A DNA stretch of 64,000 nt from a virus. Location of the stretch: the IMG/VR virus record IMGVR_UViG_3300027815_000003, positions 96,001-160,000 of that record; one strand, written 5' to 3'. The position numbers were made by a program, and so were the translations under genes. This document shows, in pieces, positions 53,329 to 54,273 of the stretch. Under the pieces are notes generated by a model. It had not been told where the DNA came from, searched no databases, and saw only the letters and a list, made by a program, of their open reading frames with translations. Each line of letters begins with the position of its first letter. Position 1 is the first letter of the stretch.

Positions 53329-54273
53329 TTATATTTCCTCTATTTTTCCTGGCCCAGTGCTTACCCATTTTACTGGGGTATTTACATCATGTTCTACTTT
53401 TTTAATAGCAGAGAAAACATTTTTACTATCTAAATAATCTAAAAATGTTAAGCAAATAGCATCTGGTTTACAAATCAAACCAAAATTATTTGCTAATTCT
53501 GTATCCCATTCCCCAATTCTTCTTATCTTATTTGTAACGGTAGTATATTCTGGTTTTTGTCCTATTAATCCAAATGTTATTTCATTTTTTAATGGGCCAC
53601 TATTACCAGCAACACGGATAGGAAATGTTCTCATTACCCCGATAACTTCATAATCTTTACAATTAGCTATTCCAGCATCAGCAAGAATTTGTGTCGGAAT
53701 AATATCTGAAGATGTTACATAAGGATAAAATCCAGAATAATTAAGTGAAAGTCCAAAACCTTGTGTAGATTCTATTAAAATATCTTTATTGTTTATTTCT
53801 TTAGATAAATCTACTATTTTTATTTTATCTGCAGATAATCCTTTTGCGACACTTCCAATTCTTAGAATTTTATTAGCTTTTGCAGATCCAGTCCCAGTAC
53901 AAGTACTGCTAATATTATTTAGAGTTATATCGTTTCTTTCGTATTTAATATCGGACAGGGTGATAATAGATGCATTCCTATCTATTATAAGAAAGCCATT
54001 CCTGTTTATATCAATATATTCTATTTCTTTTTGTAAAACAGATAAATCAATAACACTCCCAGGCCCTAAAGCTAATTTAGAATTTGTGTGCCAAGCACAA
54101 GGGACTTGTCTCATTCTATATGATTTACTATCTATTGTCATGGTATGTCCCGCATTTGGGCCACCAGTACGAATAACTAAATCGTAATAATATTTTTTAG
54201 AATACCAAGCAGTAAATTCTCCTTTACCTTCAGAACCAAATTGTCCACCCATGATTATCGTTGTTTTATTCAT
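53329..54273 (-). CDS. purZ: PurA-family synthetase with PurZ/PurZ0 signature
   Basis: GQFGSEGKG (Ser at the PurA Asp13 position), GPNAGHT, ESTQG, RTFPIRVAGNSGP, TTVT, TFLDY. Confidence 0.65.
   Translation of the reverse strand: MNKTTIIMGGQFGSEGKGEFTAWYSKKYYYDLVIRTGGPNAGHTMTIDSKSYRMRQVPCAWHTNSKLALGPGSVIDLSVLQKEIEYIDINRNGFLIIDRNASIITLSDIKYERNDITLNNISSTCTGTGSAKANKILRIGSVAKGLSADKIKIVDLSKEINNKDILIESTQGFGLSLNYSGFYPYVTSSDIIPTQILADAGIANCKDYEVIGVMRTFPIRVAGNSGPLKNEITFGLIGQKPEYTTVTNKIRRIGEWDTELANNFGLICKPDAICLTFLDYLDSKNVFSAIKKVEHDVNTPVKWVSTGPGKIEEI

Follow-up and report, generated by a model that had tools for sequence, protein, structure and literature searches.

Does a large, very AT-rich phage replace the adenine of its DNA by 2-aminoadenine (Z)? 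This question is raised by one gene in a 64,000-nucleotide stretch of viral DNA (bases 96001-160000 of the 190,284-bp IMG/VR record IMGVR_UViG_3300027815_000003; called the window in the following). The gene is an open reading frame (ORF) of 314 aa at 53329..54273 of the minus strand. Its product matches the Pfam family PF00709 (Adenylsucc_synt) at E 5e-42 and is assigned to PHROG 1211. An earlier note, made from the letters alone, had seen in it signatures of the PurZ and PurZ0 enzymes and had suggested that this AT-rich phage may make dZTP. The source record has a GC content of 30.0% and a CheckV completeness of ~94%. We favour, with some reserve, the reading that the protein is a PurZ0-type synthase, which converts dGMP to N6-succino-2-amino-2'-deoxyadenylate (dSMP) and feeds Z into the DNA together with a non-canonical set of helper enzymes. 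Taken by itself, the PurZ0-type conversion of dGMP to dSMP is likely; towards Z in the virion DNA we lean with less assurance.

Active site and relatives of the PurZ0-like protein

The GSEGKG part of the P-loop aligns with GDEGKG in PurA, GSEAKG in PurZ0 and GSTGKG in PurZ. As the earlier note had stated for GQFGSEGKG, the Ser takes the place of the catalytic Asp13 of both E. coli-type and archaeal PurA. In the PurA clade, 99% of the sequences keep this Asp, and Ser is found at its position in 100% of 147 phage PurZ-group sequences (PMC12884076). The exchange had been taken as a mark of PurZ. The Ser is indeed present, but alone it is not diagnostic, as more than 578 cellular genomes have paralogues of the Ser/Gly type. 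PIRVAGNSGP and TFLDY, which had also been noticed, are both present in the translated ORF. The former is a loop that in PurZ0 reads PIRVAGNSGP(M/L/I), while PurA and archaeal PurA have TRVG-(A/S)GPF, two residues fewer. In PurZ, the inserted loop draws a Val towards C2' and helps to exclude ribonucleotides with their ribose 2'-OH (PMC8342488). The segment EYTTVTNKIRR carries Thr at the position of T262 of phiVC8 PurZ (Gly in PurA) and Lys at that of K267 (Arg303 in PurA). All in all, equivalents of Phe12, Ser14, Pro233, Thr262, Lys267, Phe295 and Tyr298 of phiVC8 PurZ are present, and the protein departs from canonical PurA in its Ser at Asp13 and its Lys at Arg303. The predicted residues of the dGMP pocket match those of PurZ and PurZ0.

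The motif that contacts the base of the nucleoside triphosphate (NTP) is LTFLDY, compared with LTKLDV in PurA, LTCIDK in archaeal PurA, LTMLDQ in PurZ0 and LNFCNY in PurZ. Calling TFLDY intermediate was accurate, since it has Phe at PurA Lys331, Asp at Asp333 and Tyr at Tyr298 of phiVC8 PurZ. The pocket therefore looks like a hybrid, which combines the adenine-type Phe and Tyr of PurZ with the guanine-reading Asp of PurA and PurZ0. PurZ0 is said to use GTP, a finding attributed to Tong et al. in 2023. Since the protein retains from PurA both the Asp that specifies guanine and the C-terminal STGP, GTP is the likelier donor also here, and we regard it as the probable one; the flanking Phe and Tyr might also admit ATP. 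In PurZ, the Phe and the Tyr stabilise the adenine (10.1101/2025.10.22.683976, section 4); the roles of the other active-site residues are taken from the same source and from PMC8342488. The F-L-D-Y pocket would offer a natural intermediate for studying the switch from GTP to ATP as donor between PurZ0 and PurZ.

A phylogeny of PurA, PurZ and PurZ0, proposed earlier as a check, did not group the protein with canonical PurA. The careful tree was calculated with IQ-TREE (LG+G4; supports are ultrafast bootstrap / SH-aLRT) and contained canonical long PurA, archaeal Asp-type PurA of the short kind taken from genomes, five PurZ, four PurZ0, cellular Ser/Gly-type paralogues and viral contigs. All Ser/Gly-type sequences, the window protein among them, form one clade (100/99), which is sister to archaeal Asp-type PurA. 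Within this clade, a "cellular-type" subclade (98/92) is the first to branch; members of it are also carried by two large viral contigs (L200, 312 kb, 29% GC; L156, 188 kb). A group of 31 rows that unites PurZ, PurZ0 and the clade of the window protein is supported by 97/91, and this all-viral clade of 11 rows by 100/98. Inside it, the window protein and a relative of 81% identity (P0002) are sister to the proteins of L145 and L146 (100/98). The join of the viral clade to actinophage PurZ0 is weak in the careful tree (82/82) and had an SH-aLRT of 97 in a quick tree, which agrees in placing the window protein with PurZ and PurZ0 and apart from Asp-type PurA. PurZ forms a separate long branch in the careful tree. 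By this topology, the lineage is bracketed by two enzymes that are dGMP-specific by experiment, and is a new branch that belongs to neither. Family, clade and active-site signature are direct observations.

Searching 50,697 phage records yielded 216-219 matches, all less than 40% identical and nearly all from PurZ or PurZ0 phages. In a set of 5.8 billion proteins, identity is 81% for the closest relative and falls to 49% for the next one; at the position of Asp13, nearly all of the best 120 matches carry Ser or Gly. The cellular Ser/Gly-type PurA paralogues (GGQ[FY]GSEGK; more than 578 species genomes, GTDB loci L019-L098) are accompanied by a canonical Asp-type PurA in 5/5 cellular genomes checked. 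Their carriers include complete chromosomes of Dehalococcoidia, Acidobacteriota, Pirellulaceae, Mesorhizobium and Lacibacter.

With the PurZ0 of actinophages (Gordonia phage Archimedes 7VF6, Arthrobacter phage Wayne, Gordonia phage Ghobes), the window protein shares 33-38% identity, the Ser at Asp13 with Glu14 kept (GSE.KG), an identical PIRVAGNSGP, the segment TTVT(N/Q)K(I/V)RR, the Asp of the NTP motif and a neighbouring position in the tree. It differs from them in lying outside the PurZ0 clade, in its F-L-D-Y instead of M-L-D-Q, and in its length (314 aa versus 360-406). PurZ has the same fold but is distinguished by GSTGKG, by its use of ATP or dATP and by an Asn or Gln at the position of the Asp that specifies guanine. 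An AlphaFold2 model of the window protein is confident (pLDDT 89, pTM 0.90) and reaches a TM score of 0.87-0.90 to 5K7X, 6FM1, 7VF6 and 7ODX. Since PurA, PurZ and PurZ0 all fit the model equally well, the fold (Foldseek) was dropped as a discriminator. All residues that are invariant in the clade are present, and comparison with an 81%-identical orthologue on contig L225 gave a dN/dS of 0.16; the gene is thus under purifying selection.

Candidate helpers and a possible route to Z

Between 59503 and 52817 on the minus strand, neighbouring genes overlap or adjoin each other, which fits a single operon. In the order of transcription, it comprises genes for a CYTH-like protein, an AAA_28 protein, an NDT domain fused to a deoxynucleoside monophosphate (dNMP) kinase, a NUDIX hydrolase, two small ORFs, a DNA methyltransferase with an SPPY motif, two further small ORFs, the PurZ-like protein and a DnaQ-like exonuclease, the last sharing 40 nt with the end of the purZ-like gene. 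A gene resembling those of IMP dehydrogenase (IMPDH) is located 1.3 kb further upstream. A single contig, L225 (14 kb, 27% GC), is closely related, and on it the genes for the IMPDH-like, CYTH-like, kinase, NDT-dNMP kinase, NUDIX, methyltransferase and PurZ-like proteins are conserved in the same order; a gene for the DnaQ-like exonuclease was not found on this contig. Operon structure and synteny are, like the purifying selection, observed directly.

Two helper enzymes of PurZ0 phages serve as a reference for these neighbours: DutZ, which hydrolyses dATP and dGTP to monophosphates, and DmtZ, an NDT-family enzyme that destroys dAMP (PMC12884076). NDT (PF05014) and dUTPase have accordingly been reported as components of the Z pathway (PMC12884076), and both domains are statistically linked to dZ-modified contigs (10.1101/2025.10.22.683976). 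At the 80 viral loci with purZ-like genes, a Dut-like gene was found within 10 kb in 64 and PolA in 54. Among the nearest viral relatives, four (L145, L146, L151, L153) have an NDT-Dut fusion directly after the purZ-like gene, and a fifth (L147) has a Dut-like gene.

The N-terminal NDT domain of the 311-aa fusion in the window resembles DmtZ in its catalytic triad (Tyr4/Asp65/Glu90) and in its YLA.P and G..ME motifs, and hhalign matched it to a DmtZ alignment with a probability of 94% (E 1.2e-7). Only two full-length matches to the fusion exist in the set of 5.8 billion proteins, namely the protein itself and a 73% relative, and no cultured phage record covers at least 80% of it; it appears to be restricted to this lineage. 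The NUDIX hydrolase, whose gene overlaps those on both sides, may have a role like that of MazZ or DutZ. A complete trimeric dUTPase (Dut1) is encoded elsewhere in the window. Its best-scoring match in cultured phages is the Dut of a PurZ0 phage, a DutZ (88 bits), and it is possibly a DutZ-like diphosphatase for dATP, dGTP and dUTP. A Gly or Ser in place of the second Asp of motif 3 was considered as a further DutZ-like sign of Dut1 and dropped, because ordinary actinobacterial dUTPases also show it. Judged by these similarities, NUDIX hydrolase, NDT-dNMP kinase and Dut1 are plausible rather than demonstrated functional analogues of the Z helpers.

The IMPDH-like protein, which is devoid of CBS domains, scored 200 bits with TIGR01302 compared with ~125 bits for models of GMP reductase. 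Its top PDB matches are bacterial IMPDH (6e-47), and it retains the Cys loop and FRGMAS; an IMPDH is thus more likely than a GMP reductase. For replication, the phage encodes a DnaE-type Pol III alpha, DnaB, DnaG, RecA and an intein-bearing ribonucleotide reductase (RNR).

From these parts, the following route can be proposed. The NUDIX hydrolase, Dut1 or both would convert dGTP and dATP to dGMP and dAMP, and the DmtZ-like NDT domain would remove dAMP with release of adenine. The PurZ0-like enzyme would combine dGMP with Asp at the expense of an NTP, likely GTP, and the dSMP formed would be cleaved to dZMP by the adenylosuccinate lyase (PurB) of the host, which we propose because the phage is without PurB. 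Phosphorylation to dZTP could be achieved by the fused T4-type dNMP kinase of the phage, possibly, and by the nucleoside diphosphate kinase of the host. The DnaE-type replisome would then place Z opposite T, with the neighbouring DnaQ-like exonuclease perhaps helping to reject A. The IMPDH-like enzyme would drive IMP towards guanine nucleotides, whose supply would matter because at 30% GC about half of all nucleotides (15% G + 35% Z) would be made via GMP.

In its most far-reaching form, which we put forward tentatively and with considerable doubt, the proposal has all adenine (~35% of bases) of a 190-kb phage replaced by Z. A third, convergently assembled helper set of NUDIX hydrolase, NDT-dNMP kinase and CBS-less IMPDH would support this, and a DnaE-type Pol III with a DnaQ-like proofreader would do the copying. 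Every base pair would then have three hydrogen bonds, and a Z genome would for the first time be copied by a polymerase of family C. To our knowledge, the Z genomes found so far belong to sipho- and podoviruses of 40-83 kb that have PolA (DpoZ) or PrimPol together with one of two helper sets. If true, a large and very AT-rich phage would be added to those with the Z pathway, and it is in such a phage that Z:T pairing has its greatest physical effect. A third route of dATP clearance would join the picture of functional convergence, and it could be asked whether a DnaE-type replisome selects dZTP or tolerates it. PurZ and PurZ0 are already known and the metagenomic diversity of their family is recognised. 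New are the branch with a hybrid nucleotide pocket, the 190-kb, 30% GC, DnaE-based setting, and the absence of both known helper sets, in place of which there is a conserved module of NUDIX, NDT-kinase and IMPDH-like genes. A literature search found no paper linking PurZ to jumbo phages.

Weighing a Z genome against other roles

Several findings weigh against a Z genome. Partners were searched for in the whole 190,284-bp record by phmmer, using 24 reference proteins from Wayne, Ghobes, Galactica, SBlackberry, VP5, ZP6, PMBT28, DMU1 and BCSR129. Only dUTPase matches were returned, and there was no match to the DatZ, MazZ, DUF5664 or DpoZ references; for DatZ and MazZ, six reference proteins were used. 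PF04447 (DUF550) had no match in the genome either, a weak test, as the control genomes gave no match to it. HD_3 (PF13023) was likewise not found. No stand-alone HD protein was seen; PF01966 occurs only in the CCA-adding module of a 1,743-aa polyvalent protein. PurB was not found in the genome, nor was PolA (PF00476) or PolB, and nothing matched the DpoZ of Wayne or VP5 by phmmer. The earlier note had seen no DatZ or polymerase in the window, and rightly so: the sole polymerase found, the DnaE-type enzyme, lies outside of it. Its advice to search the remaining genome for datZ, mazZ, DUF550 and dpoZ turned up none of them, with the same caveat for DUF550. This absence of canonical partners is a direct observation. 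A DnaE polymerase was found in 0/5 complete or cultured PurZ0 or purZ-like phage genomes checked. The PurZ0 phages are 40-83-kb siphoviruses of high GC, in contrast to the 190-kb, 30% GC, DnaE-based phage described here (median GC 56% across the 80 viral purZ-like loci). Unlike them, the window's genome lacks a DpoZ-type PolA, DUF5664 and a gene-adjacent DutZ-DmtZ fusion; their Z cluster consists of PurZ0, DutZ and DpoZ-1, with or without DmtZ. PurZ phages carry DatZ, an HD-type dATP triphosphohydrolase, and MazZ/DUF550, a MazG-like (d)GTP diphosphohydrolase, and neither was found in the genome.

The candidate helpers also have features that do not fit. The NDT domain has His10 where DmtZ has its adenine-reading Asp12, and its fusion partner is a T4-type dNMP kinase rather than Dut. 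Its closest stand-alone homologues are from phages without a PurA-family (PF00709) gene (5/5 records). The idea that relatives of the domain travel with PurZ was ruled out, as no purZ-like gene was present within 10 kb at nine viral loci. Dut1 is 23 kb away from the purZ-like gene and not linked to it, and in a tree it appears, without a firm position, just outside a clade (SH-aLRT 93) that holds 4 DutZ and 20 purZ-adjacent Duts. Searches of PDB and NCBIfam with the NUDIX hydrolase gave no match informative of its specificity. IMPDH-like genes are found in other large phages too, and within 10 kb of the purZ-like gene at 0/80 other viral loci, so the argument from guanine supply is only suggestive. 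As the genome lacks DpoZ and the partners that usually clear dATP, the step from the enzyme to a Z genome is one that we infer, as we do every substrate specificity and the Z in the virion DNA.

These gaps lend themselves to another explanation, namely PurZ-type chemistry without rewriting of the genome. The enzyme would make dSMP and dZMP or their ribo forms, with Z being incorporated partially or serving another purpose. A drain on host dGMP and GTP, a nucleotide signal or counter-defence may be such purposes, and the same may hold for the cellular Ser/Gly-type paralogues. We consider this unlikely on balance, but worth serious attention. No recognised dATP-clearing enzyme or Z-selective polymerase was found in the genome. 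The wide occurrence of the paralogues, with canonical PurA beside them in all five genomes checked, implies roles of the family beyond phage DNA, and the window carries counter-defence genes (Tad3 and a set for NAD salvage). In addition, the A-containing sites TCGA and GATC are still depleted (observed/expected 0.27 and 0.49 in the whole genome). This last point is blunted by the finding that ~47% of tested restriction enzymes remain active on dZ, chiefly at Z-poor sites (PMC12944874); some site avoidance is thus to be expected in a Z genome as well. The protein lies, furthermore, outside the cellular-type subclade, and members of its all-viral clade adjoin DmtZ-DutZ-like fusions. Its operon is shared with enzymes that act at the dNMP level (NDT, dNMP kinase, NUDIX), which fits a place in the metabolism of DNA precursors.

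An ordinary short archaeal-type PurA that raises the supply of AMP and dATP, with the dehydrogenase acting as a GMP reductase that feeds IMP, is improbable. It would suit the high adenine demand of an AT-rich phage, and the dehydrogenase does match models of GMP reductase, though it scores higher as IMPDH and retains the Arg of the RGM(G/A)S flap. The profile searches, too, speak partly for an ordinary PurA and against a Z-forming enzyme. The NCBIfam PurZ model NF038379 came out on top, but with 236.2 bits it stayed below its cut-off of 300, and the archaeal PurA model NF003295 followed with a nearly equal 230 bits (cut-off 368). We read the low NF038379 score as that of a divergent member of the wider group, apparently distinct from the ATP-type PurZ which the model represents. 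The best sequence match in the PDB is likewise the PurA of P. horikoshii (5K7X/2D7U; 6e-43), with PurZ0 7VF6 of Gordonia phage Archimedes (PMC12884076) at 3e-34, phiVC8 PurZ at 2e-33 and S-2L PurZ at 2e-23. The P. horikoshii enzyme also has the highest Foldseek score and resembles the window protein in its short architecture, its guanine-motif Asp and its STGP. It differs, however, at the very positions discussed above: it has the catalytic Asp13 and Arg303 and an uninserted TRVG-SGPF loop, whereas the window protein has Ser, Lys and the PurZ0 insertion after the conserved Val. The tree, moreover, splits the two with 100/99.

That the gene is a decaying or functionless passenger acquired by horizontal transfer is most improbable. 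The nearest relatives do belong to unrelated 45-56-kb phages of ~50% GC, and most relatives exceed the protein in length by 25-60 residues. Against this stand the intact frame, the complete set of clade-invariant residues and the low dN/dS. The composition of the gene matches the 30% GC genome, it is embedded among overlapping genes of the operon, and the structural model is confident. We retain the PurZ0-type synthase with non-canonical helpers as the preferred reading.

Features of the window and further observations

The coordinates of the features are compiled in Table 1; those of the motifs in the PurZ0-like ORF were verified by translation.

Table 1. Position of the PurZ0-like gene, its motifs and other genes in the window, with supporting matches.
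Feature	Coordinates	Strand	Evidence
PurZ0-like candidate N6-succino-2-amino-2'-deoxyadenylate synthase (P0001), 314 aa	53329..54273	-	PF00709, trees, motifs
P-loop GQFGSEGKG, residues 10-18	54220..54246	-	Ser at PurA Asp13; Phe at phiVC8 PurZ Phe12
PIRVAGNSGP loop, residues 218-227	53593..53622	-	PurZ0-type two-residue insertion after conserved Val
NTP-base motif TFLDY, residues 276-280	53434..53448	-	F..Y of PurZ with Asp of PurA/PurZ0
DnaQ/RNase T-type 3'-5' exonuclease	52817..53368	-	PF00929 1.6e-8; PHROG 192 'DNA polymerase exonuclease subunit'
N6_N4 DNA methyltransferase, SPPY motif	54864..55658	-	PF01555 3.5e-34; 84% identical in L225
NUDIX hydrolase, candidate dNTP pyrophosphohydrolase	56364..56825	-	PF00293 1e-11; 84% identical in L225
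NDT-superfamily domain (residues 1-~135) fused to T4-type dNMP kinase (~140-311), 311 aa	56822..57757	-	PF21448 5e-17; PF05014 8e-5 (below its cut-off); PHROG 139 and 7995; PDB match of kinase domain 1DEK
P-loop kinase-like ATPase	57754..58269	-	AAA_28; PHROG 'thymidylate kinase'; 47% identical in L225
CYTH-like (triphosphate tunnel) protein, weak match	58624..59133	-	PF01928 2e-4 (below cut-off); PHROG 6660; 81% identical in L225
CBS-less IMPDH-like dehydrogenase	60754..61848	-	PF00478 2e-65; 66% identical in L225
Trimeric dUTPase-family protein Dut1	30216..30680	-	PF00692 2e-19; all five motifs
Second, degenerate dUTPase-fold protein, 201 aa	29618..30223	-	without motifs 2, 3 and 5

The ORF of the degenerate dUTPase-fold protein is directly downstream of Dut1 and has an N-terminal extension of ~90 aa; the protein may be non-catalytic or repurposed. 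In 7 of the 80 viral loci, a methyltransferase similar to that of the operon is encoded close to the purZ-like gene. An uncharacterised family is encoded directly downstream of PurZ0 in Ghobes (gp51; L015 6094..6657), SBlackberry and Galactica (L142 4224..4760, L141 5124..6071). It recurs in 31 of the 80 viral purZ-like loci, and a search of the window's genome found no homologue of it. In phages without purA, the stand-alone NDT homologues adjoin, or are near, a DUF5664/MazG-like NTP pyrophosphohydrolase (L252 9950..10862; L254 4286..6015; L255 9745..11474), a pair that may clear a nucleotide for another DNA modification.

With regard to composition, the palindromic 4-mer CCGG does not occur in the 190,284 bp, where a Markov model predicts ~104 copies. 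CGCG is depleted as well (observed/expected 0.44), and AT-only palindromes are near expectation. Together with the depletion of TCGA and GATC, this suggests strong avoidance of a CCGG-type restriction system of the host. As counts of palindromic 4-mers do not separate Z from A genomes, they were dropped as a discriminator. The counter-defence genes of the window are a homologue of the Thoeris inhibitor Tad3 (30863..31300, minus strand; PF25185 9e-38) and the NAD-salvage set, with a nicotinate phosphoribosyltransferase and a radical SAM gene at 42979..46152 (minus strand). Inteins were noticed elsewhere in the genome: the large subunit of RNR is apparently split by an intein/homing-endonuclease region (genome 61362..65639; L009 1365..5639), and an intein with a LAGLIDADG domain lies inside an AAA ATPase (genome 26040..29048; L007 6043..9048).

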